In this document: positions 3,832-59,299 of the stretch, piece by piece | How positions within the stretch are numbered: the stretch's first letter is position 1 | Layout of the letters: every line of letters starts with the position of its first letter | Source: Gnetum montanum | Taxonomy: Eukaryota; Plantae; Gnetophyta | NCBI GenBank assembly: GCA_015680685.1 | Contig: MNCI01000668.1 | Span: 506,231-570,230, forward strand | Direction of reading: 5' to 3' | Length of the DNA: 64,000 nucleotides | Notes under the pieces: model-generated | What the model saw: only the letters and a program-made list of their open reading frames with translations | Database searches by the model: none | What the model was told of the DNA's origin: nothing | Position numbers and translations under genes: made by a program

Positions 3832-4672
3832 TCCTAGAAAGACCATGGCTTAGCATGATTAATGCTAAGATTGGGATCATAAACTTATTCCTAGAAATTT
3901 TCAAAAAAGATGAAAAGGAAGCTATACAAAGACAAAGAGTTCCATGAACCACATACATAATTCAAGGTACAACTACATGCATAAAGTATAGATAGTATAA
4001 AAAAACATTTTAGCATTTAATATGTATATAGAAGACGTGTGCACAATGTTGTCTATATGTTATAGCCAAAATATAAAAAGACATCCAGTGGCTAATAATT
4101 GAGAATGAGTGTAAGTCTAACATATGCATGACATTAGTAGAATAAATCGCAAGTACCTATATTAAAAAAATAAATGAGATGAAGTAACTAAAAAAGAAAC
4201 ATTTCTAATTAGAGTATTAAGAAGAAGAAGAAATAAAATGGGAAAAGTTAGATATTTGAAATAAATTAGAACCATAGCCCATAGAACTCAAAACATTACC
4301 AAAAATACTAGAGTAGGTATTTATGAACAATTGAAAATTAGTAATTATTAATACCAATATTATTAAGGAATAACAATAGAAACTACTTAAGATAGTCAAT
4401 AGATGACCAAAAATATTTGCATGGTCATAATATGACATTACAAGAATTAATATATGCATTTGTTAACATTACATTTACATAGACCCTATTGTTAAGCCAT
4501 GCCATCAACCTCAAAAATGACTAAATCTTGAACTCAAATAAGTCATAAAGCAAGAACTTAAGAAGCTAGTCAAAGTAGGATTCATCTATGCAATTGTGAT
4601 TAGTCAACAAGTCATTCCATTTATTATTATCCTAAGGAAAAGAAAAAAATGGAGAATTTATATTGATTTCAT

Positions 4673-5865
4673 ATTGGCCGAGTTATTCGCCTGACAGAGG
4701 CTGCCTTGGCCAACTACCTGGGGATCCCAACAGTTGGGGAGATCATCTTGCCAACCTCCCATGGCCTCCATAACTCGGCGGTCTTTTTCCAGGGCCTTTC
4801 CCTGAGAACGCAGAGCCGTCAGGTCCCTCGGACTTCCCTCCCGCGTCTTTGGGCTCATGCGGCCGTCTTAGTTGAACGCTTCTTTGTGCAGTCAGGAAAC
4901 GTCTCCAAGCTCCAGGGGCTGCATTTCACCTTCCTACGGTGCTTGCAGGAGGGCACCTGGGTTAACCTACCGCGCTTCTTCCTCAAGGCCCTCCGCCTCC
5001 AGCGGCGAGGTCGCCGGTCGAGGCTTATCTTGGCCCTGTGGAGGGGGGCGGGGGAGCAGGGGGCACCGGGCCCGTCCTCTGCCCCCGCTAGGGGGCGTCG
5101 CTTTTCCCCTCCCCCTGCTTCCCCTCCTGCTTCCCCCCCTTCCTCTACTCCTCGGCGGCTGGCTACCCTCCATCTTTCCTGGGGCCGCCGCTCCCGCCGC
5201 AACCCTGCTCTCTCGCCCGCCCCCCCAGCGCCCCCCCACACTGGGAGGCGCAGCTTCGGGGGGCGGTTGCTGCTGCCAGGGAGGCCGAACAATGGTCGTC
5301 AGAGACTCAATGGGCTGAGGCCCTGGCCAAGTGGCAGGCCGACCACGAAACCCAGCTCCAGGAGCAGGCGCAGCAGCTGAATAGGCAGCATACGCTTGCG
5401 ATGGAGACCCTGCGTGCCCAGCTCACGGATGAGCTCCGGGACCGGATCAGGGTGGAGCTTCGGCAGGAGGAGGCAGACCGGCAGGCCTGGGAGGCGGCGG
5501 CCTGGGAGGAGCAGGAGTGTCTGCAGGAGGAGGAGCTGCAATGGCAGCGGCAGCTCGACCGGGCACATCAGCACAGCGCCCGCCAGTGGCTGAGGGGGGG
5601 GGGGCGCTGCCCGTATACCGTCCTTGGTATTAGCTGTGAGAGCTCCTGGGGGGAGCTCAGAAGGCATATCCGGCGCACGTCCGCTAGACTCCACCCAGAT
5701 GCGGGGGATTCGTCGTCGAACCGGCGCAGGCGCGAGGCTCTTCTGCAGGGGTTCCAGTAGGCCGTGAACTTCGTCGACACGGAGGATCATCGGGCCACCC
5801 TGGACATGCTCCATGAGTTGGAGTTACCTCGGTGTGCCTGCCACCAGTTGCCGACTCACCCCTAG
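4673..5865 (+). pseudogene. Fusion ORF: Transposase_32/env-like accessory domain + Pro-rich linker + coiled coil + DnaJ (J) domain; one frameshift and one in-frame stop
   Basis: The 4706 frame reads GRVIRLTEAALANYLGIP...FLRCLQEGTWVNLPRFFLKAL...SRLILALWRGAG. The 5401 frame is open from 5092 and reads HWEAQLRGAVAAAREAEQW...coiled coil...CPYTVLGISCESSWGELRRHIRRTSARLHPD (HPD 5692-5700)...REALLQGFQ*(5758-5760)AVNFVDTEDHRATLDML...stop at 5863-5865. Confidence 0.75.
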
Positions 5866-6122
5866 CCCTTCCCCTCTCTCCCTTGTTCCCGCCCCTTCCT
5901 GGTTGGGTTCGTCGTGGGTGGGGGGTCTTTTGAATGACTGTACGGCTTTGAGGTTTTCGGCCGCCATGTGGGGGTCGGCATGACTTTTGTGGGGGCCTGG
6001 GGCTCCCCCCACCACCCCCCTTTCGGGGTGGGCTACCCCCCCCCCTCGCTTGTACTTGTACTTGTATAGTCGTGTACCTTTCTTTAAGTAATACATTCCC
6101 GAACATTCTCTCTCAAAAAAAA
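4675..6122 (+). mobile_element. GC-rich, 5'-truncated, poly(A)-terminated retroposed insert (LINE 3' end or LINE-mobilised retrocopy)
   Basis: Abrupt switch to high GC with abundant CpG. It starts mid-ORF, has a 3' UTR with TGTAC repeats, AATACA at 6090-6095 and A8 at 6115-6122. Host RT reads WRIYIDF on the left and FKDHF on the right; ATAT occurs at both junctions (4671-4674, 6122-6125). Confidence 0.85.
6090..6122 (+). terminator. Polyadenylation-like signal (AATACA) and short poly(A) tail
   Basis: AATACA lies about 20 nt upstream of an A8 run that abuts the resumed host RT sequence. Confidence 0.6.
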
Positions 6123-7151
6123 TATCACATCTTTAAGGATCATTTTAACTATTATTTGTTAATTAATTTTTATATACTATTACAAGACATTAATACTATG
6201 GATTTTTGAATGATTAAAGTGAATACATTCAAATTTGAATAGCACTAGAAGATTAAGAAAAAATCACATTCAGTAGTTTGTGGAAAACATTTAACTATTA
6301 ATGATCCTATTTAATCTTTGTAATGCTCCTACCACATTTCAACAACTTATCCTTAGTATATTTTAAAAATAGATTGGTAATAAAGTTAAGATGTTAATGT
6401 ATGATTTTTCTACCTATGGCCCTAACTTTGAGTAAGCTTTGGACCTCCTAGAGAAATTATTGAAGAGATGCATTGAAACAAATTTGAAGCTCAACTAACA
6501 AGAAAACAATACCATTTGATGGTCCAAGAGGGTATAGTTCTAGGGCACAAGATTTTACAAAAGGAAATTAAGGTAAATAAATAAATAAATAACAATCATT
6601 CAAAGTATCATCCAAAGATATAAATTATTAAGGATATTAGATATTTCCTTGGTCATACTAAGTTCTATCAAAGATTTGTTGAAAATTTCTCAAAAATTAT
6701 AAAATCATTAGTCAAACTAACCAAGAAAGATATGTAATTTCTTTGGTGAGAAGTATGTGAAAAGGCATTTGAGATTCTTTAGCAAAAATTAGTAGAGACT
6801 TGTATAACTTTTTTACATTATGATGGATGTTTCAAACTATGTATTGGAGGTTGTACTAATTGTGAGGACAATGCCAACATTAAATATGCAACATATACCA
6901 AAGTAAGAAGATAATAACATTAACATGTACCTATTCAAGATACATATAAGAGAAATCCTATAAATAATGGGATATGTATGAGAGATAATAAGGAAGAATA
7001 CCTAAAATCAAGTGATTAGTCAAAACATAATTTGAAAATATTGTTATAAAATCTATGGATAAAGATGATATAATGCTTATAGAAAAACGATGCTTCATTG
7101 CTTACCTTGGTTTGGTTGGGTATGTAAAACAACTCCTTATTTTATGGTTTT

Positions 7152-12756: not shown

Positions 12757-15700
12757 TGAAGAACTCATTTGAAGCTAAAGCATATTAGAAAAATTTGTAG
12801 TCAACCTAGGATGAGAAAGAAAGTGAGAAGGAACTAAATGACACTTCTATAAGGTCACATCTTATTTGTATAACCCTTACACATGAAGATTCTATAGTGA
12901 AAGAATCTAAAGATACTCTTGAAGAAAGGTATGACTTATTATGCAATGAAATTATATCCTTTCAAAGTTTATGTATTAAGATGACAAAGGTCTTTAGTGA
13001 TAAATTTTTAGAGTTCTTTCAAACATGCTTGAATCTCAAATAATAAAACTCAAACCTAAGGGCTAAGAATCATAAACTAACATCCTCTTATGATCAAATT
13101 ATCAAAGAGCTTGTAGATACAAAGCTTATAAATCAAAGACTTGAAAAAGGAAAAGAGATCTTACAAATTATATTAGAATAAGGAAGAGATCCACATGAAA
13201 AGAGTGTTTTAGGAATCCACCAACAAAATGAGACATCTTCAAGCACATCATCTAAATGGGATTATACACCAAGGTTTGATCATCTTTCCCAAGTAAGAAA
13301 AATCAAGTGTTATTATTGTAAAAAGTATGGGTACAAATACTCAAACTATCATTTAAAAATAAAACATTATAACATGACTCCTTGGTCTTATGCAAAAGTG
13401 CCTAGAAATAATGTCTTGCAGGGAAAAAAGGTTTGAAGATCCAAACTAAAGAAGGAAGATGAAAGAGCAAACACTAGGGATACAAAAGATATTTAATGAT
13501 TATAAAGAAGGAAATTTGAAGAGAGAACCTTATCATAAATCTACTTGAATAAAGCACCTTATTAAGAGCAAGAAAAGTGAATTTTGATAAGTAATTGGTA
13601 AGTATTTTCCCTTGACCTGCATTATGTTTTAGCTTTGTTTTTATAATAATTATTATCCTTGTTAGCATTCCTTAAGAACCTCATTTTTCTTAGTTCTCTA
13701 TAGTCTAAAAAGAACCAACTTAATGTTAGAGCATCCTATCCAAAATTAAGACATCCCACTATGCATAGGCTCAACTCAAGTAAGAAATTCTATTTTTTCT
13801 TAGGACATCCCAAACTATGGCATAAATCCTATCAATGACATCATCTATTTATATCCCATCATTCTTTTTCCCATTTCATTACATTTAAGCCTTGGATGTC
13901 ACAACATAGTCAAGTAGGGCCTCTTTTTTGCTACACTTTCATTCCATTTTTGCCCAAAATCTATGACACACAAGAAGGTTGCAACATCAAGGGTGCCTCC
14001 TCACAAGGTCAAAAGTGAAAAAGGAGCTTCTACAAGCAATTCAATTTTATATCAACTCCAATTTTAGTCTATGGATGCTTAGCATTGATTTGAGATCATC
14101 CATTTTATCTCTATTGTCAGTAAAAGAAATCTTAGTTGTCAACAACACCAATAGCAAGCTTTTATGGCTTATTTTCAAGAAATCGGTTAGGTTTCCATTG
14201 TTTACATGACTTATTATATACCAAAAAATTATGATTAGAGAGTTATATAGTAATATAGTAATTACCAATGCTATTATTGGAGCATTTACATTTGTTATTG
14301 GAGGCATTACAATTGAAATCTCATCTCAAGTTGTGAATGCTTTACTTGGGATTTCAAGTTTTGATATGCATAGCATTGTCATACATGTTATGAATGAAAT
14401 TTTCACCAATGGATTTATTCCTATATCTTATGATGAGTTTTGTGATGCTATTTTTAGTAGCTATCTATCACTGAGAAGTGGAAAAGTGTATAGACATCAA
14501 ATGTTCCAAGATGCTTCTACTCTCTTCCTTAAACTCATGTATAATATCATTGTAAAAGAGGAAAGATACAAATATATTCTACAAGATCAAGATTTTGTTC
14601 TATATTATCTTCTAACTTGGCAGCTACTAAATTTGGGACATATTATTTGCAAGGACATGTTGGAATTATTTATCCAAGAGAGAGTTTATGGACATCCTCT
14701 ACTCATCAATCTAGTTGTTCATTAGGCTAATGTTCCTATTCTAGATCTTCCTCTTCTTAAAGGGAAGAGATGTCTTGTAGAGTTTTCCAAAAAAAAAAAA
14801 AGAAGTGTAGCTCTTGCTAATTCTAAAGTTCTAACTCCTCCACCTTAGAAGGCATGAAGGAAGAAAGCTACATCTTCACCTAGGACCTCTCCTTAGCTCA
14901 AGAGTTCTAAGTCCATAAGTTCACAAGTGGGGTCTATCATAAAGAAGGATCTAAAGTCCTTTGGCAAAATCTTGGGGATGATTGGATGGAATCTCTCTTA
15001 CCTATATAACAAAATGGATACATCAAGCCTTCCTCCTCCTCTAGATGATCAATAGTTTGAGGAAAATACTACTCCTCATTTGACAAATAGTGATGAGGAC
15101 ATACCAACTCCAGCCAAACATTCTACAAATGTAGGACCATCATGAGGATATGATTCAAATAATGCATCAAATTCATAGGATCTTGTTGCATCACCTATTC
15201 ATGCCCAAGGGGAGTCTTTTTCTTGCACTGAGTAGCCTAGATTGAGTACATTTTTGCACGAGGATGTTCCATAGTCATTTGAGCAGTAGGTGATGAAGAG
15301 AATTTTTGGTACAACAGCACATTGGGAGCAACTAGCTTCTAAAACTTACCAGTGTAAGGGTACTTCCTCTTCCTCTCATCAAGCTCCATCTCATACCCCT
15401 TCATTATAGTTTTGGGTGAAGCTTTGACCCCAAAGAGCTCCTATTATAGTATCTTCTTCTAATGATGATGAGCAGCATGTCTTCCATTCCAGTACTAGTA
15501 ATGATGATGAGGAGGAGGAGACATAAAATTTTACTCATGCAACTTGAAAATTTGATAAGGATGATGATAGAGAGGTTAGTGGTTAGGGACCTTTCATGAT
15601 ATCCTTCTTTTGGAAGATGTCCAAAATGGGGAAGATTTTTTATGGTTATGTGCATTTTTTACATTTTGTACAATTATGTGTTATGAACAATTTGATGGTT

Positions 15701-18689: not shown

Positions 18690-21600
18690 TTAAATAAATA
18701 TGTATAAAGCCTAAAATTTATCACCATTAAAGAAATTCAATATTAGGTTAAGGCTTATAGATCAATTTATCATAGTCCTGCATAGACAAGTAGAAGATGT
18801 TGTGACCACTATTAGTGGGTGATCATACCTTGTAGATTTCATAGTAACTCATGTTAAGTAGAATAAGAAAAAGTTTTCAATTATCATGGAAAAAGGATGG
18901 CTTAGTATAATTAATGCTAAGTTATGAATAAGAGACTTATCCTTGGTGATTTCCAAGGAAGACAAAAAAGGAGCTATATAAAGACAAAGAGTTCCATGCA
19001 TTATGTATAGTAATACAAGATGCAACTACATGCAAAAAGTGTGGACTATAAAGCAAAGAAATATTTGAGCATGTAGAACATGTGTAGAAGCAATGTATGT
19101 ACAATGTTACTTATACATAGTAGCAACCAAACAAGAAGGCACCTAATGACTAATAACTAAAAAAGAGTGCATTTTCAACAATGGATGACAAGTTTTTATA
19201 TAGAAGAAATAGATAAGATGGAGTGATTAAGAAAGAAAGTTTTCCAATTAGAATACCAACAGGATGAAGATATGAAATGGTGAATGTTAGATATTTTAGA
19301 TAACCTAGTGCCATAGCCTAGAGAACATAAGACATTACCATATAAATTAGAATATGTATTTCTCAACAATGGAAAATTGGTAGTTATCAATGTCAATCTT
19401 AGTAAATAGAAAAATAAAAGCTACTTGAGGTAGTAAACAAATGGCCAATAATGTTCACATGGTCAATTAGATTAAAAATGCCAGCACTAAATATGTACAA
19501 ATTCTACTATCAAGTCACAAGGCCAACCTCAATAGTGAATGAATCTAAAGCTAAAGAAAGTGGTGAAATAGGATCTTTAAAACTACTCAAAGTAAGATTC
19601 ATTTATCTAGTTGAAAATAATGAATGGGTTAGCTCATTATTTATTGCCCAAAAGATGGAAGGTGGAGGATTTGCATTAATTTTTGACAATTAACTGTAGA
19701 AACTTTTAAAGACCACTTTTCATTACTATTTATTGACCACGTATTAGATACTATTGAATGGCATTAGTACTATAGACTTTTGGATGGGTTTAGTGGATAA
19801 AATCAAATTTAAATAGCACTAGAAGATTAAGAAAAGACCATGTTCACCAATCCATGAGGAACATTTGCATGTCTAGACAAATGTCATTTGGTCTTTGCAA
19901 TGCATCTACTGCATTTTAATGACTTGTTCTCAATATTTTTCAAACATAAATTGATAATGAAACTAAAGTATTTATGGATGATTTTTCTACTATTTAGATC
20001 ATCTATTAAAAAATATGCAGAAACACATTTAAAGATCAATTGGTAAAGGGGCCATGTAAGGATGAAAAATGATATAGTTTTAGGACATAAGGTGTTTCAA
20101 AAAAATGAAGATGGATTAAGATAAAACCATTGTTATCCAAGACATAATCTACAAATCACAAACTATTAAATATGTTACATCTTCTCTTGAGCATATTGGT
20201 TATTATAAAATACTCATTAAAAGTTTCTCAAAAATGGCAAAGTTGGTAATAAGACTTACCAAGAAAGATGTGTCATATATTTTGTCAAAAGATTTTTTGG
20301 AGGCATTTGAGGACACAAAATAAAAATTGGTAGAGACTCTAATCTTATGAGCTCTAAACTAGTTAATACCTTTTTACATTATGATGGATGCTTCAAATTA
20401 TGCATTAGGTGTTATACTTACAGAGTTATATAATCAAAAGAGATCATATTAAATCCATAGTGTAAGTCACTATATCACATGAGCATAACTTAACTCCACT
20501 ACTATAGAGAAAAAAATTGATCATTGTGAGGTATGCACTAGAACAATTTCAATAATATATGCTTGGTTATCTAATTTGTGTCCATACTAACTATAGCACA
20601 ATTAGATTCTTAATGAATGGCTCATGATCTTATAGGAATTTAACATCACCATGATTGATTAAAACGGAAATGAAAATGTAGTAGCAGATCATTTGTCATG
20701 AATACGATGAACTATGGAAGAAAATGTAGAATCCTTGTTAGACCAATTTCTAGATACATTTCTATTCACTGAAGTAGTAATAATTGTAGAGCACAAGACA
20801 AAAAAAATTCTACTTCATAGATTATCTAACTTATTTAAGTACTCAAAAAAATTCCTACTAAACGAAATAATAAGAAGAATAAACAATTTCTTCATTAAGC
20901 AAATAACTTCATTGAAATCAATGGTAATCTATATAGGATCAATGCTAATAGATGAATTAGATTATGTGTGCTAGAGGAAAGTAAATAAAAAATTCGTAGG
21001 ATGTACATGAAGAACCATGTGAAGGCCATTATGTAGAACAATAAACATCAATCGAACTACTTGTGGCTACATATTTTTATTCTACCATATTTTGGAAAGC
21101 ATATCAATTTTCTTAGTCTTGTCAAAGATGCTAATAAGATGGAGGAATAACAACTAGACATGAAGGCTTGCAATGATGAATATAACCATTAAAACCATTT
21201 GATATCTAAAAAATAGATTTCATGGAATCCATCACAGTAACATTAAATGAAAAGGTATACATAATAGTCACTCTTGATTATTGCATGAAATTGATAGAAT
21301 CTAGTGCAATTAAGGATTGTACATCAATAACAATAGCTAAATTATTTTAACAACATCTAATGAATATATTTGAAATACCAATAATGTTGATCTCGAATAA
21401 TGAAACACATTTCATAAGATCCATATTTAAGAAATTTATGTAATAATTTAGGGCTAATCATAAATTAATAACACTCTATCATCCCTAAGCCAATGCATAG
21501 AAAAACGTGACTAGCAAAGAAATAACATAAATTTTAACAAGAATAGTAGTTAATATAGGAAGGACTAGAAGACTAAGCTTAACAATGTTCTTTGGGCATA

Positions 21601-26999: not shown

Positions 27000-28463
27000 A
27001 TGTTCAAATTTTCCATTGTAATGACAATTTTTTCTTGTTCATACTAATTGTTCAAACCTGGGTATGTACCGCCATTTAGGTGACATACTTGTACATGTGT
27101 CATCATGAGAATCCTTTTCCTATCTCTTTTGATGTGCAAAACTTGAGGAATCTCTAGATCTTCAATAATCTTATTACCACTAGGTCTGATACCTTATAGA
27201 TCTTTATTTATCTACTCATAAGATTGAGTTAACTTTTGAACCTCAACCTTTATGTTTGAGTTTTTTTCTTTTTAGAGAAGAGCATATAGTATAGAGCTTA
27301 GTTATTTGAACTTCCTTGCTATGTAAATTTTTTTTCATTTTTATGGATAAATTTTAAAAATAAATAATTTCTTCACGTAGCATACTATATCTTTCCTCAA
27401 TATTACCTTTAGGTTCTTCAAAATCCTCTGTGGAATTTTCACTTGTAAGAGCCATGTAAATAAGATTAGAGTTTGTTGATGGATCATTAGTTTCTTCTTC
27501 ACTCCTAGCTAGTGTAGAGATCTTTGGTCTTCTTATCTTCTTGAGTTGATTTCTTCTTCAATAACCTATTAGCACAAGGACATTCAAAGGTCATATAGCC
27601 TCTTCCACCACATATCCAAAATTCTATAGAAGAAATACTAAGATCATAATTTCTAGGTGGCTTACCTTTTGTCTTACCTTTGTTGTCCAATTGATTGAAG
27701 CTTTTTCATTTTCTTACCTAAAGCATATTTACTCTTCTTGTTATGAGATCAAGTTCATCATCACTGTTTGCATCATTATCAAATATCTCCTTTTCTCTTG
27801 AAGAACTCTTAAGAGTAATGGATTTCTCCTTAATAGCATCTCCACTAATGAGATTAATATCATATGCTACAAGTGTACTTTGCAACTCTTCAAATTTGAA
27901 AATGGAGAAATCCCTAATTTCCTCCGTATTAGTGATTTTGGATCTAAATTTAGGAAGTACCATTTTAATCATTTTAATGATGACTTCATCCTTTAATAAC
28001 TCTTTCCCTATACCTATAATGGCTACTACAATATCATTGGCCCTAGAGAAATAATCTTTAATCCATTCACCTTCTTTCATTTTCAATTTATCATATTTAG
28101 ATTGAAAGACTAGAAGCTTGGATTGTTTCACCACTAAGATTCCCTCATAAGTGGCTTCTAAAACTTTCCAAATTTCTTTGGCAATTTTAGATCCAATGAT
28201 TTTATTAAATTCAAGTTTGCTAAGAGCACAATAGAGGTAGTTCCTAGAGTTTGAATCATACATAAACTTATTTTTGTCATTGTCATACCACTTATCTCTA
28301 CAAAGTGCATTGCCTGTAGTGTCATTGATGGGATGAGTATATCCTTCCATGATGGACCACACTTCAAATTCCATGGATTCAAAAAATCCTTACATTTGTG
28401 CTTTCTATTATTCAAAGTCGATTCCATCAAACATTGGTGGCTTGTTGTAAGATGTCCCCTTCA
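27000..28463 (-). pseudogene. gag: Copia/SIRE gag (UBN2-type capsid, zinc knuckles, coiled coil)
   Basis: ORF 27718-28374 reads NYLYCALSKLEFNKI...AKEIWKVLEATYEG...LKMKEGE.I. The N-terminal KPPMFDG lies upstream in another frame. Knuckle remnants at about 27600 and 27020. Confidence 0.9.
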
Positions 28464-39000: not shown

Positions 39001-42000
39001 TTTTATACCATGGAATGGTTTCTTAGGAGAATCAATAAATTTCATTAGCTTTTATTTTATTATTTAATTTAAGATTCTTATAATATTCTTATAGTTACCC
39101 TTTATATTAATTTTTCAACATTACGAAATTTTGGCTCAAAATTCCTTGTCTACGTGCAATATACCACCCCNNNNNNNNNNNNNNNNNNNNNNNNNNNNNN
39201 NNNNNNNNNNNNNNNNNNNNNNNNNNNNNNNNNNNNNNNNNNNNNNNNNNNNNNNNNNNNNNNNNNNNNNNNNNNNNNNNNNNNNNNNNNNNNNNNNNNN
39301 NNNNNNNNNNNNNNNNNNNNNNNNNNNNNNNNNNNNNNNNNNNNNNNNNNNNNNNNNNNNNNNNNNNNNNNNNNNNNNNNNNNNNNNNNNNNNNNNNNNN
39401 NNNNNNNNNNNNNNNNNNNNNNNNNNNNNNNNNNNNNNNNNNNNNNNNNNNNNNNNNNNNNNNNNNNNNNNNNNNNNNNNNNNNNNNNNNNNNNNNNNNN
39501 NNNNNNNNNNNNNNNNNNNNNNNNNNNNNNNNNNNNNNNNNNNNNNNNNNNNNNNNNNNNNNNNNNNNNNNNNNNNNNNNNNNNNAATGACTAAGTTGAG
39601 CACTTTGGAATCAATAGGATTTAAGAAGTATAAAAATTAGAGTTGTGGTGAGGAATTTAGGTAAATGGGAAGTTGAGGCATCAAAGCTCAAAAAAAACTA
39701 CAAAAACTCCCCTTTCTTTAAAATGAAAAATGAAAAAAATAAGTTCGAACTCCTCATGTATATATATAGCTTTTTATATGTATGACATCATTGATGTAAT
39801 ATCATTTCTCTAACATCATAGGTCATATGACATCATAGATATGATGTCATTGCTAAAACATTTTAAACTTTTGCTAATTTTTTATGGAAAAATTGAGTCA
39901 ATCGGATATTTGGAATATATGGAGACTTTCTAAGGAGTCTAGAATCATAGATGATGCTTGGATTACAAACATTTGGCATTCAAAGGTCACAATGAAGGAA
40001 TCTCAAGCAACAAAGGTCAATTAGATATATATGAGATACACTAAGAATTTTTAATATATGGAAAAATTATAAAACTTGTGGGAGGTAAACTTGAGTGCTA
40101 AAGTGTCCTAGGGGCACAAGATAATGTGAAATTGGTTGTCAAGTATGAGGTACAAGATTTATACAAGTGGATCCTTCCCAAAGTAGGCTTCAACCCTTAG
40201 TGCCCTTGTATAACCATGCCTATAAGTGTCCATAGACACTTAAGAAGTTGAATGTAGAACATATCTATCTTGCAAAACATACATGTTAGTATTGCCAGAA
40301 TGGAAAAATAATAGTATATTATAAAAAACCATAGAATTATAATTAAATATACTAGTGAGGTTGAATGGGATTAGAAGGGATTGTAGAAATTGATATGTGA
40401 GCTATCTTACCATAAGTATAATAAATCCTTGTATATAATGTTTGGTTAAAGTGATTATTATCCTTTCTATCCAAGATCCAACTCAAGTCTATACCACTTT
40501 CTAGTGACATTGGGTTGTATCACCCCCAAGACTAACAAACACAAGACCATCATAGTTGCAACAAGCATTACCACTTGGCAATGTAGTTCAAGGAAGGAGT
40601 TTATTAATAGCACACTTATTTTTGAGATTTATGAGAAGCTACATACCTTCAAGCATGGGTAACATATCTTTCCAATGGGACCCTCAAAAATTTTATTTTG
40701 TGTATTTATAATATTTTTACTATGTCAACCTTACTAGAGGACTACCTCCAGGCACAGGTAACATGTCTTTCCAATGACATGATAAGGTAGCACCTATTGT
40801 ACTCATACTTCCATATTTTGTTAGAACTCAAGAAAAATAATAGAATCTTAATAACAAGATAAGGCTCATAGGAATAGTCTCAAAAAATCCACAAAACCCC
40901 TTGATGTCACATCCCTTTTCATTTTCAGTTGGTTCTTCACTTTTCTATCCAGGCATAATGATCACAAGTTTATTTTTGGTTTTATTGTGAAAAGAATATT
41001 ATTATGGCCATGATAAGAATCTCTTATTATTGGAAATGACTAGATGGATGATGTGGTCTAACTGTACATAAAATTATTCCTTCATGATTTGATAATATGG
41101 TGTCATCTTCACCTTATTGGAACTAAATCTTGCTTTATTCCTTTACATCTTGTTGGAAAATTAACAAAAATATGTACAAGACATTATGAAAATCATAGAG
41201 AATGATTAAAAATGAAAAAAATAGAGAAATAATTTGAGAAATATTGAACAATAGAAAATGATTAAGAAATAAAAAAAGTATAAAAGAATAAGAACATATC
41301 AAAGAATGTGAGAAACTAATTAAAAAGAAAAAGATTCAATGTAGTGCCTAAGTCCTACATGGGACACCCCCACAACTATTATTGAAAATAGTCAACCATA
41401 AAATAGAATAGGTTAAGGATGATTTAGTGAGTTTGGTAGAATCCACAAAGAAATTGGGATGTTCATAGTACATTTTGACTTCTTGAATATTGACTAAAAT
41501 AAATTTGTGTGGGTTGGTTGGATGGTAAATCTACATGGCACCTGAGGGATATATTGCATGGATGATGTATGATCCTTCCCATAAGGTTTGGAACTTAGCC
41601 CTCTATGGTACATGACTTTGATTATAATATAGGACTTTATCACATGGTTGGATTGATACATGCCTTATGCATGTTCCGTGCCTATTTTTGGAGTATTTCT
41701 TATGTATTTCATTGCTCATTAGGGCTACAAGTCTATTTTCCTCTAAAAGGTTGAGATTCATGAGATGTTCTTTCTAAGCTAAATTTAGTTCTAGGTCAAT
41801 TTTGTTAGAAATAGCTAATATTTGTAGCTCTACTTAGATTGGTAGTGTAAGCAATTTTCCATAGACTAGCTCATAGGATGAGTATCATATGGGAAGTTTC
41901 CATGTAATCCTATATGCCCATAGAGCATCATTTGATTTAGTGCTCTAATCTTTCCTAAATCAACTAACTATTCTAGTTAATATTCTTGTAATTTCCTAGC

Positions 42001-45000
42001 TAGTCACTTCTGCTTGATCATTTTCTTGGAAATTGTATGGTGTAGTCAGCTTGTCGTTTACTCTAAGTTGTTGCATGAGCTTTTTGAAAGTAGCACCCAT
42101 GAAGTATGTTTCATTATTAGATATGAGCATTTGTAGTACTTAAAACTTATTTATTACATGTTGTTGAAAGAATTTAGTAGTTTTTTTTGCTATAAAATCC
42201 TTGACTATAGCTACTTCTACCCATTTAGTAGAATAATCAACTATCACTATAATATATGATTTCCTATTTGACATAGGTGCAATGAACCTCATGAAATCAA
42301 TCCCCATATTTCAAATGGTTCCAATGGCTAAATTCATTGCTATGTTCTATCATTCCTAGTTGTTATTCCTCTGTCACATTAACATCTTTTACAAAACTGG
42401 ATAAAGTTAGGTGCATTCCAAAATATAATAGGCCAGAAGTAGCCTACTATCATTAGCTTTAATATTTTCCTACACCTTACATAGTGACCATCATATGGTC
42501 TTTCATGCATATCTTGTAGGATTATTTGTTGATTCTCTTTTGGAACACACCATCTTACTAATCCATTAGCACACATCTTGTAAAGATTCCCATTTATTTC
42601 CATATCTCACTTTACTTTATGAAGGAACTACTCTTTCTATTTTCTATTCCACTCAACAAGGAGTTCTTGTGTAAGAAGATAAGTTATACAGTCAGTGATC
42701 CATGACTTCTCTGATAAGTTAATAGCCATTGTTATCTTTGTGAACAAATTCTCATTAGGAAACTAGTCTAATAATGAATATTCTTGCTCTTGCGGTTCCC
42801 ATCTTAACATTGACAAGTGATCTACTATGACATTCTCTATTCCCTTATTGTTGATCATAGTGATGTCAAATTCTTGTAGTATTACAAGCCACCTTATCAC
42901 CCTTGGACTCACCGCTGGTTTATTCATCAAAAATCTTATTCCACTATGGTCCATGTGGACATAAATAAGGTAATTAAGCACATAATGTATGAATTTTTCT
43001 TGCACATACACCATGGCCATAAGCTCCTTTTCCATAATGGTGTAATTAAGTTATTCTCTAATGATGCTTTAACTGGCACAGTGTGTGTACTATAGCCTTT
43101 TTTATCATTAAGCTTTGTCATTACTACATCCAATGCATAATTGGAAGTATTTGTCATTATGTGGAAAGGCTTGGACTAATCCAAAGCTTGAATAATTGGT
43201 GTTTCAATTAGCTTCTATTTTAGTGTCTCAAATGCCTTCTCACATTGTTCCATCCACTAGAATGATGCATCTTTCTTTGTCAATTCTACCAATGGCTTTG
43301 CTATTTTTGAAAAATGTTTGATGAATCTTCTATAATATCTTGTATGACCTTGAAAAATCTAACATCCTTAATGATTTGTGGCCTTCAGGTGATGTTTTGA
43401 ATGACTCTTATCTTATCTAGGTCTACCACTATTCCTTTTTGTGATACCAAATGTGACAATTTTTTCCATCCTTAACAAGGGATAGGACATTACACCTTAT
43501 GTCCCAACATAATCTCACCTTGGACCATTAAATTCTCTTTTGCCAATTGAGCTTCAAATTGGTTTCAACACATATTTTCAATACCTACTCCAAATGATCC
43601 AATGCCTACTTGAAATCTAGGCCATAAGTAGATAAATCATCCATAAATACTTCTATTCCATTACTAATTTACTTTTGTAAGATACTCAATACTAATCTTT
43701 GGAAAGTGGGAGCATTGCATAAGTTGAAGGCATTTACTTGTAGGAAAATGTTGCCTATGGACTAGTGAACATAGTCTTTTCTTGGTCATCCAGTGCAATG
43801 TGGATTTGGTTATACCCATTGTACACATCAAGGAAACTATAAAATTGATGTTCTACTATGGTATCAGGGACCTAGTTAATAAATGTTAAAGGAAAATTGT
43901 CCTTGAATCTTACAAAGTTCAATAATCAAAAATCAATACATATCCTCCACTTGTCACCCTTCTTCAAGACAATGACTAAGGGACTTACCCATTCACTATT
44001 TGCAATGGAATAGATGAATCCTACCTTTAATAGTTTTCTCAATTCTTTTTTTACTACTTTTTTGAGCTTAGGATTAAACCTTCTTTAAGGCTGGTGGTGT
44101 CGCTTGACAACTGGATTTGTGTAAATTCGATGTTGACATATACATGGATCAATGTCTATTATCTCATCATAAGACCAAGCAAATGTTATTGAACACTTCC
44201 AATAATTTTTTCTTTTGGTCTTTATCAAGGTTGTCATTGATGATTATCAATTTTTTATTATTTAAAAAGACATATTCTAGCACTTCTGGTAGGCCTTTTA
44301 CTCTAACTTATTTGACTCAAACTTGTCTAGGATCTCAAGTTGTCCCCATTCAATGTCTTCTTCCTAGTGTAAATGTGCATAGGGGTGTTTTCTTCTTAGT
44401 TATTCTAACTTATCAGTTTCTTCAACATAGGTACTTATGATTTGATTAGTTGGTTCCATGTATATTTTGAATTTCATCTCTTTATTAGTAAACAGTAATT
44501 TGGTACCTTCTTGTTTAGTGTTTGTCGCATATAGACATCATTGCAGATACATTTCCTCTACACATTGATTTCATGTTGTACTAATTCCTTATTTAACAGC
44601 CCAAATTTTTTGCACATAATTACATCCATTATCTTTGTATATGATACATGGAACTTGGCATCTTTGTATAATTCCAGCTTTGTATTCCTTGGAAATCTTC
44701 AAGGATAAATCTCTAATTCCTAGCTTAGCATCCATAGTGCTAAGCCATGCCCTTTCCATTATTATAGGGAATTCTTCCTCCTTTTTTCCCATGCGTATTA
44801 CTAAGAAGTCAATTGATTAGGACCAACCACTGATGGTGGTGATGACATCATCTACCTATCCCAGTGAAACAATAAATGACCAATCCACAAGCTCTAATCA
44901 AATATTACTTTTCCTTAGTGATAGAGCATTCCAAGCTTTGTACATGTCCTATGAAATCATGTTCACTTCTAACCCAAAATCCAATAGAGCTTTGCATGAT

Positions 45001-51600: not shown

Positions 51601-53829
51601 CATACTATCCTAGTGGGACTCCTTATTAGCCTCAAAAATACTATCAACCATAGTGGTAGCATCCATAATTGTGGGGGAGTCCATCATCAAACCAGTGCTA
51701 CCCTTATTACTAGTCAAAATCATATAGATATTATGTTCGACAACCTATTTCCCAAACTAGTTCTATGTCCTCTACTTCAGATCGCTACTACTACTCTCCT
51801 AAGTATCATCAACATTAACATCTCCTGAAGGATCACCACCTTACATCTCTTACCCTCCATCATATACTTAATATTCTCATACCTCATTCTATCACATGTC
51901 ATAGCCAACAACACAAGAAGGTTCAGCATCATAACATCCACAAGAAAATGCCACTTGTGTTGCAAACATACATGGACATGATAATGCCAATAGGTTCCCA
52001 CCGCAATCTTAGAAATGTCCTTTCTTTAGGATGCTTCCCACACATAAGTGCAACACTTGTGGACCTACTAACTCATCCAAACTTGCATAATGCCAATCAA
52101 GTGCAACATCCTTCCTTTCACAACTAATGTCCTCCGATCCTACGCAAATGCCATCATCCATCGTTACTCCAACACCTAAAAAAAGTAATGAATCTAGCAT
52201 TGTCAAGACACAAATGAATCCACACATAACTAATTATGATAAATGGTGCAGTCATGGACCAAACATATACAAAGTTCACATAACTCATACTTTGACTCAC
52301 CATGCAGTTAACAACCAAGTGTGTGAGCAACAACCCATCTACACAATCACAACAAAACCAAAAGATATCCAATGGCTTGAAAATGAAAGTGTAACACTAT
52401 TTCAAAAATGTATGAAGCCTGCCTATCCACTTATTAATTCTTGTTATGGTCAAATGCTTAGTCGTGGGGAAAATGCCCCATCCAAACATTCAAAATTAAT
52501 AGGTGTTTTTCATCTTCTTCTTTTTTACAATTTTTTATCATTTTCTCATTTTTTGATACAAATTTTTCCTATCCTTTTCAACTTTTTCCACATCTTTTTC
52601 ATTCCCTTTGTCAATAATCACGTTTTTGAATAAAACAACATCATGTAGTCCATTGAGGTGAGGTTTTCTCTATGTTGTCAAGTTATGAGGGACTGATTAT
52701 TTGGATAGTAAGGCCATGTCATCCATCCATTCATATCATTCCATTAATAAGAGGTTCTTACCATGGTCATAATGATATTATTTTTCATCATCAAACTAAG
52801 AATTAATTTGTAATCATTATGCTTGGATAGAAAAGTGAAGAACCAAGTGGGAATGTAAAGGGTATGACATCAAGGGGATTTGTGGATCTCTTTGACCACT
52901 TCTGTATGTTCTATCATGTTACCAAGGTTGTAATTATATCCTTGTAGATCTAACAAAAAATCAAAGTAAGAGTAAAATAAGTGCTACCTTGCCATGTCAC
53001 TAGAAATACACGTTACCCATGCTTGAAGGTTGGCGGCTTCTCAGAAAACAAAAAAAAAAGAAGAGAAAAGAGAAAGTGCCATGAATAAACTCCTCCCTTG
53101 GACAAAATGCCAAGTGATGCTACTCCTTGCAATGGTGATAGTCTTATGTTTGTTAATCAAAGAGATAAAACAATGTGATGTCACTAGAACATGGTGTGGA
53201 CTTCATTTGAATCTTGAAAAGAAGGGCTAATGATTATCTTAACTGTTAATAACACACAAGGATTCATTATACCTCTAGTAAGGCACCTCACATCCCAATT
53301 TCAACAATCCTTTCTAAAATCCATCTCATCTCACTATCCGTATGATCATAACTTGTGGTTTTGTGTAACATAGAGTTATTTTCTCAAATTGGTGGTTTTA
53401 ACATGTTTGTTTTGTTCAATAGGTATGCATTGCATTCAACTCATTTGGTGCCTACAGAAATTTTTAGGTGTGGTTATACAAGTACATTAAGGGTTGGAGC
53501 CTGCATTGGGGAGGATCCACTTGTATAACTATTGTAACTTGTACTTGTCTGACATAACCACATCATCTTAAACCTTCCAACTACATAAATGTTAAACTCA
53601 AAACCTCCCCTTTTCATATAACCTATCCATTCTACAACATGAATCCAATATCCTTTTTCTTACATCTTTCAAAGCTTATAATGCCTGTGATTCCATCTTC
53701 TAATACTACCAGTGCCTAAATATGAATGTCCGCTTACACCAAAACTTTGGATTTTACATGAAACCTTTCAACCAATGATAGAGCTTCATTTTCCATGTTG
53801 AATGTCCTCATAAAATGAAATTTCAAGAC

Positions 53830-53890
53830 CCCCGATATCAACTACCCAATATTGGGTGGTAGTCGATATCAGATACTAGATATCGGGTCC
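53830..53890. repeat. CCGATATCGG-type palindrome array upstream of ORF2 in element D
   Basis: CCCGATATCA, CCAATATTGG, TCGATATCAG, AGATATCGGG. The same motif type occurs in this element's LTRs (49018-49090, 57398-57482). Confidence 0.7.
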
Positions 53891-54439
53891 ATAAAAATCT
53901 ATAGATAGGACCCCCACGATGCTTAAAAAATTCATTATCATTAATTAAAGCTAGGGGAGTCTTTGAATTTTTATCTCTCAACTAAGAGCTCTACACAACA
54001 AACTTCCACATGCGATATCTTGCTCCATACCACTCCAATTCTTATGTTTTTCTTAACCTATTTGATCCCAAAGTGTTCAATTTAGTTGAGGGAGGGTGAT
54101 TGTATGGAAAACTTATTTCAAGTTTATGAAATTTTCTATCACCCAGAAGGTATTATAAGGGTAAGAATGTTAAAAACCTTAAGTATCTTAATGAACAATC
54201 AATCATATGTACACCAAAAATTTTAATTATCTTGCCCAAGGAATCATAATCGTCATTATAAACCATGCATAAGGAAAAAGAAGCCAATTGCAAAGGGTCA
54301 TAACAGAAATTAACACTTTTTTGACATTTTTCTAACTCTACAATCACATGAGCTAAGAACTTAATAGAACCAAAGTCATGAGTAAGGTATAGACCTATTA
54401 ATGATAAATAACAATACCTTAGTAATACCAAATCTTTGA

Positions 54440-57170
54440 TTGATTATAGATTACTCCACAAAGAGGAGGATAAGAAGGACCTTCGCAAGGTGCAAGCAAA
54501 CACCCAAGGGGTGGAAAAGGCCAACTAGGAGAATAAGACCCACTAGCCGAGCATCAAGAATAGGAGGCCTAGTCATTTAGCATTCATCAAGAGGCTCCTA
54601 CTATAGGGTAGTTGGTCCAAGGGGAGGCTGCAAAACCATAGGCTTCAATGCAAGGACAATGCCTCACGTTGTCCGAAGAATGCCTCCAAGCCATCCAGGA
54701 GTGATCCATGTTAATCACGATCATCTTGAAAATGAACTTTGAGCCATTCATCACATTTGTCCCTAAGGTAGTCATTACTTAGCTTCAAGCATCACTTTTA
54801 TGGCATATCCTCTCTAAAAGTGGGGAATGGTACCTTCGTGAGACATACCAATGTGGCATAATAAAAAAGAAGGCACCACTATCAACATTGGTAGAGTCTC
54901 TATCTCTTTTTCAATCAAGGCTATTATAGAGGCTCTAAAAATACCCAATGTGGGGGCTACAGTAGTGCATCTATCCATAAGGTCTGATGCCAAAACTAAG
55001 AACTATGGCTAAAGTAGCCATCCAATAAATAAAACAAAGTATATAATGAGTTAACTCTAGAAGAGAGGATTTACTTCAAAATCGACATATACCACCTCTT
55101 CCCAACTAAAGGGCTCAATAGAATATCAACTTATGCATCCATAAGAAGTGCAATGTTCATGGGCAAATACACTGTCAATCATGCATAGTTGTACTTCATG
55201 GAAATTCAAAGATAGTTCAAGGAAAGGAAGGTGGGGAATTTGACACTTCCATTTCCTTACCTAATTTTAAAACTATGCAAGCATGCTAGAATCCTGGGTC
55301 ACATCAATGACATTCCTAGGAGGGCTCATAATGCTTTTTCTCTAAGTTACTCAAGCTATCAGCATAAAGCAAAGACCTTGGTAATGAACAAGAATAAGAA
55401 CCGAAGAAGAAGCTAGAACAAAAACTAGAAAAGGAGCTCTAGCAAGAACTAGTGCAACAACAAGATCCATAAGATCCACTATGATTGTCATAAGACTATA
55501 TGCCTATAATGAGATATCTACAAAGAATAGCTCAAATTCTTAGTTGGGGAAGTAGGGATGAATCAAACCTCTTCCAAGTCATCAATGACACTATGCAACC
55601 TATAGGTTCTGCTAATCCATTAAGGGGGTAGATTTCTTTGCAATTAAGAGGAGAAGCCCAGTGATCATAGAAGATCTCTAGAAATGATGAATATTTTCAA
55701 GTGGTACTTGAAATGTGCCATAGTTTTGGTCATGCAGCACCAAGATGTGGCAAGGTAGTAGAATTTATCACAACCCACATTAAAGAATCCTTTAATGTGC
55801 TCATTATGTCCCTAGTAGACTTGACCAAAACTAGAGATGCACAAACATTCCCTGGGACTTCAATGACTTCTATAGTCCATGAGGATGTACTTAATAGAAT
55901 GATACAAACTAGACAAGTTATGACAACTATGTTTGACATCCCTAATGATGTCACTGTAGTGCAATCTAACCTCATTACCACAAAAAATTGTTCATCGTAG
56001 AGACCAAGGTAGAGCATGCAAAAGCAGAAGTGCATAGATTACAACAAGAGCCCATCACCCTAAGAGCTAAAAGAAGGTATACTTCTCAATTTGTTGCACC
56101 TGACCAATTGAAACAATTTTGAATAGAGAAGTTTGGTTGATTGATTAAACAAAACAAAGTTGCTAAGAAAGGAAAGAGTAGTCTAGAATGCCTCAGCCAC
56201 TAAAGCACAAGCATATGCCAATGCAAACACATTAATCACTACACAAGAGGAAAATAAGAAGCTTGTTGCTGATAATGCTAGGTTGACCACTATCAAGAAA
56301 TAGAAAAACATGTTGGAAGAAATTATCCACCAGTTGAAAGAGAAACTAGTGAGGATTAACCAAGATATAAGTAGATTGACCAAAGAAAATCAAACCCTCT
56401 TAATAAAGGAAATTCATGCAATATGCCAAAAATCTGTAATTGAGATAAGCGCATGGCAAAACGAGGCCATCAAGCATGAGAAGCTAAAAAAGAACTTCCA
56501 ATACTAGATTGGCATGTATAAATAGATTAATAAAAAAGTAATCCAAATGGTAAAGGCCACCATTAGTTCCATGTTAGCATAGAATCTTGAGTGGTAACTA
56601 TGCCCTAGTCCACCAAGTAGAAGTGAAGAATAAGGACCTATAGATTGAAGATTTGAAAGAGTACATGGCATTGGCTAACCTTTTCTATGCTAACATTGCC
56701 ATGTTAATAGCAAGTTGGCTCAGAAATGAGTTGGAACAACAAGTAGCAGGCACTTATTCCTTGTATGAAAAAGAGTTTGCAGATAAGAAAAATGCTCTAC
56801 AAAAACTCCATGTGGCAAACTAAAAATTAGAAGTAATTAAGGCTCACTACCACAGGCAAAGAGATGTATCCTTAGACTTGGTCAAAATATTAATAGATTA
56901 TCATATACTAAAAGAAGAGCTAGAGCTTTCGAGGAGAAACAATGGCAGTTCGTAGCATGATACATGAAAGGAAATCAAATTTTCTCATAGTTGTTGTCTG
57001 TGGGATGTACTAATTCCAACACACATTGGCTCATTAGCCTAGATGGTACATGATCCAAGAATAGAGGAGGAGAAGTTATAGCCGCTCCTAAATCACTATA
57101 AATTCCATAAGTTTGACGATAAAGGAAAGCAGCCCATGAAAGAGCTACCACCTCCAGGAACTACATGAGC
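54440..57170 (+). pseudogene. Athila D accessory ORF2 (Transposase_32-like domain + coiled coil)
   Basis: GNLTLPFPYLILKLCKHARI (55231-55290). Coiled coil LEEIIHQLKEKLVRINQDISRLTKENQTL (56310-56507). Confidence 0.7.
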
Positions 57171-59299
57171 TTCCCTCAATTTTTTTGTTTTGATGTTTTT
57201 TCATGATGTGTTTATTTTTTTTTCTTGTAAAACATCACTGTGACATGAAAGAGTCAATTTGTATGTTTATTTGAGTCAGTCAATAAGCCCATACCTTCCC
57301 AATATTTTGTAAAGAACTTGTTCCTCATCCTATTTAACTTGAGGACAAGTTTTCATTTAGTCATGGGGGGGTATGATGAGTCATGTTTTGCAAGGCCCTA
57401 ATATCATGTATCCAATATTAGAGCCACGATGTTAGGTATCCAATATTAGGGCACAACCACTAATGTTAGGGATCTGATATCACACCTTCCATGCTAGCGT
57501 ATACATACAACACTTGGGTGCACAGTTGCGATATAAATAGATTCATAAATTTTGATTGATTTCAAGTTTTGTTAGTTTCTAGTGCATGCTCGTAGTGTGA
57601 TGTTAAGTGATTGTATGACATCCTTATTTGAGTGTGACATACTTGGACACGTTACATGTTTGGCAATAAAGATCAAGATTACTCCCATCATTGCAGCATC
57701 CACTTATCTTTATTATTATTATTAATTACTTAAATGCTTACTTTTTCCTTATTTAATGTTGTCATTCATTGCTTTTTATTATTCCGATCATTAAGAAGAG
57801 TGAGTACTACTAATTGCAAGCACTTAAGTGTAACTAATTGGTAACCTAGTAATGTATCATTTGGTCTACCCAATAATGGTATCCTTGGTAATCCTAGCAA
57901 TAGTTACATGAAGTCCAAGGCATGTACGAAAGGTTAGGAATGGATACTAATCACACATAGGCTAGTTAGACTTTACTTTCCATTATTAATTAGATTAAAC
58001 AATTAATTTCTCTATTATCATTAGGAGTAGCTTAGGATCGAACAACATCAAGAATCAAATGCCTCACTCTAGACTAAACCATACATGACAAAGAAACTAC
58101 TAGTCCAAGTGGGAAGATAGCGAATTGTGATCAAGGCATAATGATCTAGATGCATAACTAGTCCCATCCATAGAATTTGACTAGATCATGTGTGAACACT
58201 TCTGATTCATATTTTTGGATGTAGGGGTACTTTACCACTCATCAAAGATGCAGATGAAGAGAAAGTAAAATCTAGCTATGGGAGTGTAGAAAATCATCAT
58301 CTAAGGATTCCAATGAAAGGAAATCCTATTCCTCATATGAGAACTCCAAGGGCTCTAATGGTGTTCAATGCTACGTCTTCAAGCAAGCTTGATGAGAAAG
58401 ATAAGGCAAGGCATGCTAGAGTATTCCAAAATGCTTCAAGACTTCCATACAGGAAGTTGAATACTTTTAACAATGTATATGATACCAATGCTTTTGCAAC
58501 TTAGCTAAAGGCACTTAAGAAGAATTTTCATTTGGGAATACCAAATAACTTAAGGGTACCTATTGCTAAATCCATATCAGAAGGTATGGTTTCTAATTGG
58601 TGGAAAAAGAAGTCCCAAGATTATAAAAGATGAAATACAAGTTGAACAAAAAATTTGAATAGTCTCATTAAAGATAAAAAATCATTATGAAGTTCAAATT
58701 TCTAAGATAAGGTGATAAGGATGTCAAAGAATTCTACATCAAATTTTGTAATCTATTCCATTAAGATAAGGTTAATTGGGAGGATTATGAACAAGCTTTA
58801 ATCTTTTTAGGATATCTCAAAATGGTGTATGAACAAGAGTTATCATTTTATGAGCCAGAAAATCTTGATGAGGCTTATGATTTGGCACTCAAACCTGAGA
58901 AGAAATAAGGAGGATTTGAAAATAGAAGTAAACAAGCTTCTAAGGGGAAGGAGAATGGATCTAGATCTAATATGGGGTCCAAGTCCAAATCTAAAGACAA
59001 GCATGGTATCCAAGACAAGAAGACTAAAAGAAGTGATGGGAAGGGAAAAGCTAAGAAGGACCAAGGCAAGAAAGGCAAAGGTTAAGGAAATAGCTCATTA
59101 AAATGTAGAGCTTCAAATGTAGAGAATGAGGAAATAAGCAATAGGAATGTTCACTTTACAAGGTAGCCAAGGGAGAAGATGTACAAACCATGGAGGTGAA
59201 GAAGAAATCAATCCAAGCTCTTCAAATAGGTAATCCTAATGCTCTAAAACTTGAGGATGTTTTTGAATTAAATTATTGTGCATTTATGGGGAATATAAA

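Follow-up and report, generated by a model that had tools for sequence, protein, structure and literature searches.

An A-tailed retroelement copy with a candidate LTR-type accessory reading frame inside a decayed Ty3/Gypsy reverse transcriptase of Gnetum montanum

The window analysed here, a stretch of 64,000 nucleotides from Gnetum montanum, is AT-rich DNA made up of old LTR-element remains that are mutually 64-85% alike. In one of these, a decayed Ty3/Gypsy reverse transcriptase (RT) is interrupted, exactly as the original prediction had it, between IDF (...WRIYIDF) and FKDHF by a segment of contrasting composition (Table 1). The insert has 64% GC with observed/expected (o/e) ratios of 0.62 for CpG and 1.03 for CHG, versus 30-32% GC, CpG o/e 0.10-0.12 and CHG o/e 0.13-0.27 outside it; the very strong CG (o/e about 0.1) and CHG depletion of the surroundings points to prolonged heavy CHG methylation. 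Two further decayed copies of the same Gypsy family, at 19348-20418 (+) and 43226-44191 (-), are 64-71% identical to the interrupted RT; the part left of the insertion has 64-76% identity to two other RT copies in the window. The stretch 6335-6449 is skipped by related host-family contigs of three sequencing runs (X5, X6, X7), which carry ~35 other letters in its place. Also found in the window are a Gypsy RT-RNase H fragment at 42766-43050 (-; PF17917, E 1.6e-12), a Copia gag fragment at 27721-28389 (-; PF14223, E 1.4e-16) and an assembly gap of 415 N at 39171-39585. A second copy of the insert is absent from the 64,000 nucleotides.

Table 1. Features of the insert and of the interrupted host element (positions in the window)
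Feature	Positions	Strand	Basis
Decayed host Ty3/Gypsy RT, left-hand part	4503..4676	+	Translation, RT copies in the window, empty-site contigs
Insert (1443 nt), very probably a 5'-truncated copy of a poly(A) retroelement family	4677..6119	+	Contig joint 4676>6120 (X5, X6, X7), GC/CpG contrast
Candidate plant-transposon accessory domain, 5'-truncated, PF20167 (Transposase_32)-like	4677..5047	+	Atlas, two unnamed homologues, codon periodicity
Pro/Ser-rich linker with a frame change in it or near it	5048..5235	+	List of open reading frames, position-wise base use
Glu/Gln/Ala/Arg-rich part, predicted long helix or coiled coil	5236..5610	+	Translation; coil from composition
Predicted J-domain-like segment	5611..5796	+	HPD at 5692-5700; in-frame TAG at 5758-5760
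3' UTR	5866..6114	+	Lies behind the terminal stop (5863-5865); a GC-rich part comes first, TGTA repeats, AATACA and a pyrimidine run after it
A8	6115..6122	+	Empty allele continues from 6120
Decayed host Ty3/Gypsy RT, right-hand part (FKDHF...)	6120..6860	+	Translation, paralogues in the window, contigs

The limits of the insert follow from contigs of public sequencing runs that were aligned to 4200-6600; 11 of the 21 runs in the index contain part of the insert, at most 44% of its words, and the index listed no RNA run with it, which carries no information on expression. Host position 4676 is joined to 6120, with two other letters between them, in contigs from three of the runs: X5 (organism B), X6 (organism A, a different sample) and X7 (organism C). 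Over ~630-810 letters, the flanks of these contigs differ from the window by only 1 (X5), 8 (X6) and 7 letters plus 2 gaps (X7), and they are therefore taken to represent the same locus. The empty site is thus present in 3 of the 4 DNA runs (2 studies, 3 organism labels), and the limits 4671..6125 proposed earlier are superseded. No empty-site joint was seen in X1. Reads had been expected to span both junctions of the filled allele; this holds for the 3' junction, with which a 403-nt contig of X1 (6093-6495) agrees with 0 differences, having 27-30 letters on the insert side, fewer than the 31-letter bar of the tool, in a run that may be the source sample of the window, while no piece among the 32 listed of ~23,300 bridges the filled 5' junction. 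The insert is a presence/absence polymorphism between samples.

At the target of the insert two host bases were lost, and a target site duplication (TSD) of the standard 7-20 bp is absent at 4677-6119. Loss of target bases in place of a duplication is a known minor outcome of target-primed reverse transcription (TPRT). ATAT, found at 4671 and again at 6122, was rejected as a TSD, as the empty allele shows host sequence on both sides. The A8 noted earlier is present at the end of the insert, but only five of its As are insert-specific, the other three being common to the target, where the empty site carries a T/AAA step. The step agrees with the nick preference of LINEs (PMC2848041, excerpt).

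The insert starts inside a coding domain and ends in a TGTA-rich UTR with AATACA, all of which had been described correctly. Its N-terminal domain belongs to the reading frame from 4667 and is cut at the start of the domain; codon periodicity is seen over 4677-5047 (p 0.003) and over 5236-5580 (p 2e-14). In Atlas the N-terminal domain scores 0.92, with 20 of 30 matches in clusters that bear PF20167 on 25-48% of their members and that share 161-170 features with it. Pfam gave no match to this truncated fragment up to E 10, versus a cut-off of 45 bits for PF20167. A full HMMER search returned 11 matches, from which the two proteins P0008 and P0010, both without name or context, were retained (32% identity, E 3.6e-4 and 6.9e-4; 36-37 bits versus a maximum of 8.3 in 500 shuffles). 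Sequences of this type presumably resemble hypothetical proteins of gymnosperm LTR elements. The Sushi-repeat proteins P0002-P0007 and P0009 were dropped as chance matches, as were P0011 and P0012, whose matches were repeat-driven and fell in several short stretches. Word-based protein searches with this domain found homologues in none of 388 candidates among longer proteins and in none of 13 near its length, no relative of its profile was found in the PDB, and scans of viral and metagenome collections gave no locus. The predicted LTR-type accessory ORF is accordingly retained at lead level, on the Atlas assignment and not on Pfam: the last ORF of the family may encode an LTR-type accessory protein. 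That it would be unlike the end of a LINE ORF2 was borne out, since it is not an RT. Elsewhere in the window, an open frame of 171 codons at 14210-14722 (+) matches Pfam Transposase_32 (PF20167) with E 1.8e-8 in an AT-rich LTR-element context; it could not be aligned to the N-terminal domain of the insert, and the genome would therefore hold at least two distant lineages of such ORFs.

Contigs of other copies (records 3, 12, 13, 21 and 27) bridge the linker, and the order of the parts is therefore common to the family; an insertion at 5219 is found in a minority of the depth only. The N-terminal and J-domain-like parts would be portions of one protein, read across the frame change. The accessory ORF predicted originally is present, but in this copy it is broken by the frame change and the in-frame TAG, and its J-domain-like end had been overlooked. 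The latter was matched by Pfam DnaJ (PF00226) over positions 2-60 of the 63 of the profile (E 0.0012; X read at the TAG), with 19.4 bits against a curated cut-off of 27.8, and its HPD, the motif that lies between helices II and III in a J-domain, is aligned within the profile. Weak PDB sequence matches of the C-terminal part are J-proteins in 17 of 21 cases, the top four being TRADD death domains (E 0.04); the Atlas score of 0.77 for the segment is a lead only. The word-based search with the coil and the J part was empty (0 of 2539 candidates), and neither the three word-based searches nor the full HMMER search brought up an annotated homologue of the ORF. AlphaFold models reached pLDDT 44.5 (J-domain-like part) and 41.4, both too poor for use; Foldseek with the former found nothing at E 0.001, although its weak rows included a few J-domains. 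Both domain assignments, PF20167-like and J-domain, are predictions below the curated cut-offs.

In the 3' UTR, TGTA occurs at 5939, 6051, 6057, 6063 and 6073 and AATACA at 6090. A polypurine tract (purine run of at least 8) is absent from 5863-6114 and a terminal inverted repeat from the 25 listed of 162 repeat pairs, in line with the earlier reading, and no RNA stem-loop or fold signal was found at the 3' end (z -0.3 to 1.5). An LTR end (...CA) was considered and rejected: positions 6113-6114 are already A in most of the depth (23,050 of 27,518 in X6; 2,034 of 3,386 in X1), and the A-run comes next. The last ~35 nt (6083-6114) are common to other elements, which show as loose ends before 6083-6088 with an AT-richer upstream part and raise the X6 depth from about 9,000 at 6060-6069 to 53,000-59,000 at 6090-6104. 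These elements are the more abundant ones and could be sister subfamilies or a driver LINE. Most RNA reads at the tail derive from them: the reads of X13 (n=48) and X16 (n=30) lie only partly on 6030-6170 each, and none is 99% identical to the insert. Ten X13 reads carry the GC-rich UTR of the family, the first mate being minus-strand in 10 of 10, which in most stranded libraries denotes sense RNA; in the oligo-dT run X16, one read covers 6065-6079. The family ends are transcribed to some extent, which does not imply a promoter of their own.

Summed contig depth in the ORF bins amounts to 1,100-22,000 across all four runs versus 4-8 for single-copy contigs. Although summed contig depth is not a copy number, as the tool itself warns, the depth over the insert, mostly hundreds to thousands of times that of single-copy contigs, is read as hundreds to low thousands of copies, which excludes a single move of the standalone polyadenylated transcript that had been offered earlier as one source. 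Behind 6122, loose ends of 15 contigs in X1 and 23 in X6 first add As and then agree at just 0.46 (24 rows listed of 50; 6030-6170), and the copies therefore run into unlike flanks. Well-supported shared DNA sequence beyond the A-run, which had been named as the observation that would overturn the original prediction, was found in none of these 24 rows; two RNA rows show higher agreement (0.96 for 3 reads and 0.72 for 9), which fits single transcribed loci. A common A-run followed by unlike flanks denotes a dispersed non-LTR family rather than a one-off retrocopy, and the insert very probably belongs to such an A-tailed family. At the other end, X6 contig record 18 carries 145 letters upstream of 4685 that are unlike the window, its orientation following from other records, and the family therefore extends upstream of 4677. 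The common 3' end foreseen for the family is thus seen; what bears on staggered starts is the mid-domain start here and one relative reaching 145 nt further, and a clear 5'-ward fall in depth over the insert was not found in the four runs. The non-LTR route proposed earlier gains support from the A-tail with unlike flanks, the longer relative and the T/AAA step, but the target duplication, the classic sign of TPRT, is absent. At 5901-6062 the depth dips to about 240-550 (X1, X5) and 580-1,780 (X6, X7); in X1 it reaches 13,800 over the ORF versus ~370 over 5901-6062, and another UTR or 3' end may therefore be present in some of the copies that carry the ORF. In the 40 rows listed of 401, 26 of the 35 listed insert variants are A/T here and G/C in other copies, a bias in the direction of methylcytosine decay.

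An origin by assembly chimera or contamination is hardly credible. The sharp GC contrast, the filled 5' junction, unbridged in the pieces listed, and the three runs without the insert at this site would suit it, but all four plant runs contain the segment as a high-copy repeat, the filled 3' junction is matched exactly by the X1 contig, and both ends look like those of a biological insertion. Retrocopies derived from a domesticated gene of the host, in which an intron-bearing parent would combine the PF20167-like part and the J-domain, are very improbable: depths of hundreds to thousands of copies, a tail common to other repeats, the lack of an annotated homologue in the protein searches and the single oligo-dT-run read over 6065-6079 weigh more than the high GC, the strong codon periodicity and the occurrence in plants of nuclear silencing factors with a J-domain and of PMD genes derived from TEs (PMC8616336, excerpt). 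LINE-processed copies of a subgenomic or antisense accessory mRNA of an extant LTR retrotransposon, after the manner of HERV-W or Grande gene23, are improbable too. PF20167 is known from the additional ORF of Athila (PMC11728184, excerpt), antisense accessory ORFs can possess a promoter of their own (PMC7264820), and the ORF depth exceeds the UTR depth. HERV-W processed pseudogenes likewise unite LTR-element coding sequence, LINE machinery, poly(A) and a TT/AAAA site, but they have a U3-R end, TSDs of 5-15 bp and proviral parents (PMC5016936, excerpt). A parent of this kind would continue past the poly(A) site in shared sequence, and no such continuation is well supported in DNA contigs among the 24 rows listed of 50; more than 95% of the X6 depth at 6115-6116 is A, and a polypurine tract is missing within 250 nt behind the ORF. 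The LTR subgenomic RNA of the earlier reading is hence disfavoured.

Two explanations remain for a high-copy, A-tailed family in a large plant genome. The one we tentatively prefer, at slightly less than an even chance, is an L1-type LINE with an extra last ORF. In flowering plants, 224 of 233 L1 families have a poly(A) end, while RTEs have TTG-type repeats at that end (PMC3472496, Table 1, as excerpted), for which reason TPRT would be ascribed to L1-type proteins. Plant L1-clade LINEs share with the insert family the A-tail, 5' truncation, dispersed copies and a T/AAA-type target, as well as a short conserved 3' end common to several elements (PMC3472496; PMC2848041, excerpts), the ~35-nt end being comparable to the conserved tails of LINE lineages (PMC3472496, excerpt); they differ in that the last ORF here is not an RT/RNase H/zinc-finger ORF2 and in the missing TSD of the insert. 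LINE proteins act preferentially in cis, which makes copy numbers of this order easier to attain for an autonomous LINE, and such a source is preferred here. Against a LINE stand the absence of ORF2, RT and endonuclease sequence from all insert-family sequence at hand, the missing TSD, an ORF depth above that of the GC-rich UTR and the lack of a clear 5'-ward fall in depth; the sub-cut-off domain assignments, the TRADD matches at the top of the PDB list, the frame change between the two parts and the RNA reads, all under 99% identity, also weigh against this reading. Moreover, a common tail marks non-autonomous partners equally well (PMC3472496, excerpt). The other explanation is a non-autonomous protein-coding retroposon, in which one or a few master genes that arose from an LTR accessory ORF and a J-domain would have captured the 3' tail of an L1 family and been copied in trans by the LINE concerned. 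This is plausible, though somewhat unlikely. The last ~35 nt shared by elements with different upstream parts, the accompanying X6 depth jump, the origin of most tail RNA reads from those elements and the RT not seen in the family speak for it. A coding RNA of >1.4 kb that depends on transfer in trans would, however, reach an unusually high number with hundreds to thousands of copy-equivalents, and the tail-sharing elements may be sister subfamilies and not the driver. The Sadhu elements of Arabidopsis are non-coding. They offer a parallel in being non-autonomous, LINE-driven Pol II-type families that are polymorphic among strains, but they have TSDs of 7-16 bp and a low to moderate copy number (PMC2848041, excerpt), versus a coding, high-copy family here.

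Returning to the L1-type LINE with an extra last ORF, its fullest form is unlikely as a whole: an autonomous plant LINE would have taken up an LTR accessory gene, joined a J-domain to it and kept the product as a third, 3'-terminal ORF that recruits Hsp70 against silencing, and would have multiplied to about a thousand copies. In the preferred reading as such, ORF1 and ORF2 would be placed upstream of the extra ORF. At the locus described here, the LINE endonuclease would nick the target at T/AAA, the A-tail of the RNA would pair with the freed Ts, and reverse transcription would halt after about 1.44 kb, leaving a 5'-truncated copy. Second-strand cleavage would remove two target bases with none duplicated, and methylation-type decay would later introduce the in-frame stop together with numerous changes from G/C to A/T. 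The accessory protein itself would attach to the chromatin or RNP of the element and bring in Hsp70 by way of its HPD. Its task would most likely be to counteract silencing, the alternative being that of a chaperone for the RT complex. General background to these roles comes from activation by SUVH1/3-DNAJ and from hepadnaviral RT, which requires Hsp40/Hsp70. The anti-silencing or chaperone role of the predicted protein is put forward by analogy. Counter-silencing is favoured on account of TE-encoded VANC domains, which resemble MAIN/PMD (bioRxiv 2024.04.02.587720, excerpt), and of the J-domain protein SILENZIO, which acts with HSP70 at methylated DNA (PMC8616336, excerpt). What VANC, PMD (MAIN/MAIL1) and SILENZIO would have in common with the insert ORF is that they are TE-encoded or TE-derived chromatin regulators or recruit HSP70 through a J-domain at methylated DNA; for VANC and PMD the analogy is functional only, no sequence or fold link to the insert ORF having emerged (fold model pLDDT 41).

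The additional ORFs of plant LTR elements comprise those of Athila (PF20167/PF03078), the Tat aORFs (Grande gene23, Retand) and ATLANTYS. The insert would share with them the PF20167-like domain seen in Atlas and, with the ATLANTYS protein, a globular domain with a long helix behind it (bioRxiv 2024.04.02.587720, excerpt); a nuclear or regulatory role has been proposed for such ORFs (PMC7264820). Unlike them, the ORF of the insert lies at the 3' end of an A-tailed family without LTR, and the J-domain-like segment that follows its domain is absent from the excerpted descriptions of those ORFs. On the LINE side, the excerpted text of PMC5203782 has the antisense ORF0 of primates as the only third ORF and no downstream third ORF of the kind seen here. 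Among the papers found by literature search, none has a title or abstract start that describes a LINE or other A-tailed family of plants whose last ORF is PF20167-like or of the J-domain type; PF20167 came up in two papers, one of them on an Athila ORF. Repbase may already catalogue the family.

Plant LINEs are described as two-ORF elements with the RT protein last, and the PF20167-type accessory proteins described so far come from LTR elements. If the upstream part is that of a LINE, an accessory ORF with a J-domain at its end would represent a novel architecture among LINE-type elements, and such an ORF in an A-tailed family that is high-copy and still polymorphic would, if true, mean an exchange of modules between two retrotransposon orders. 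The copy described here is dead and lies inside a dead Gypsy element, its local consequence being that of a presence/absence marker. For the family, capture by a LINE would, if it holds, represent the first self-encoded anti-silencing factor of a LINE together with an LTR-to-non-LTR gene transfer; a non-autonomous origin, if true, would define an unusual class, the protein-coding LINE-tailed retroposon. The HPD predicts an Hsp70 partner as well as a simple loss-of-function control, and would thereby offer a handle on the role of the accessory proteins.
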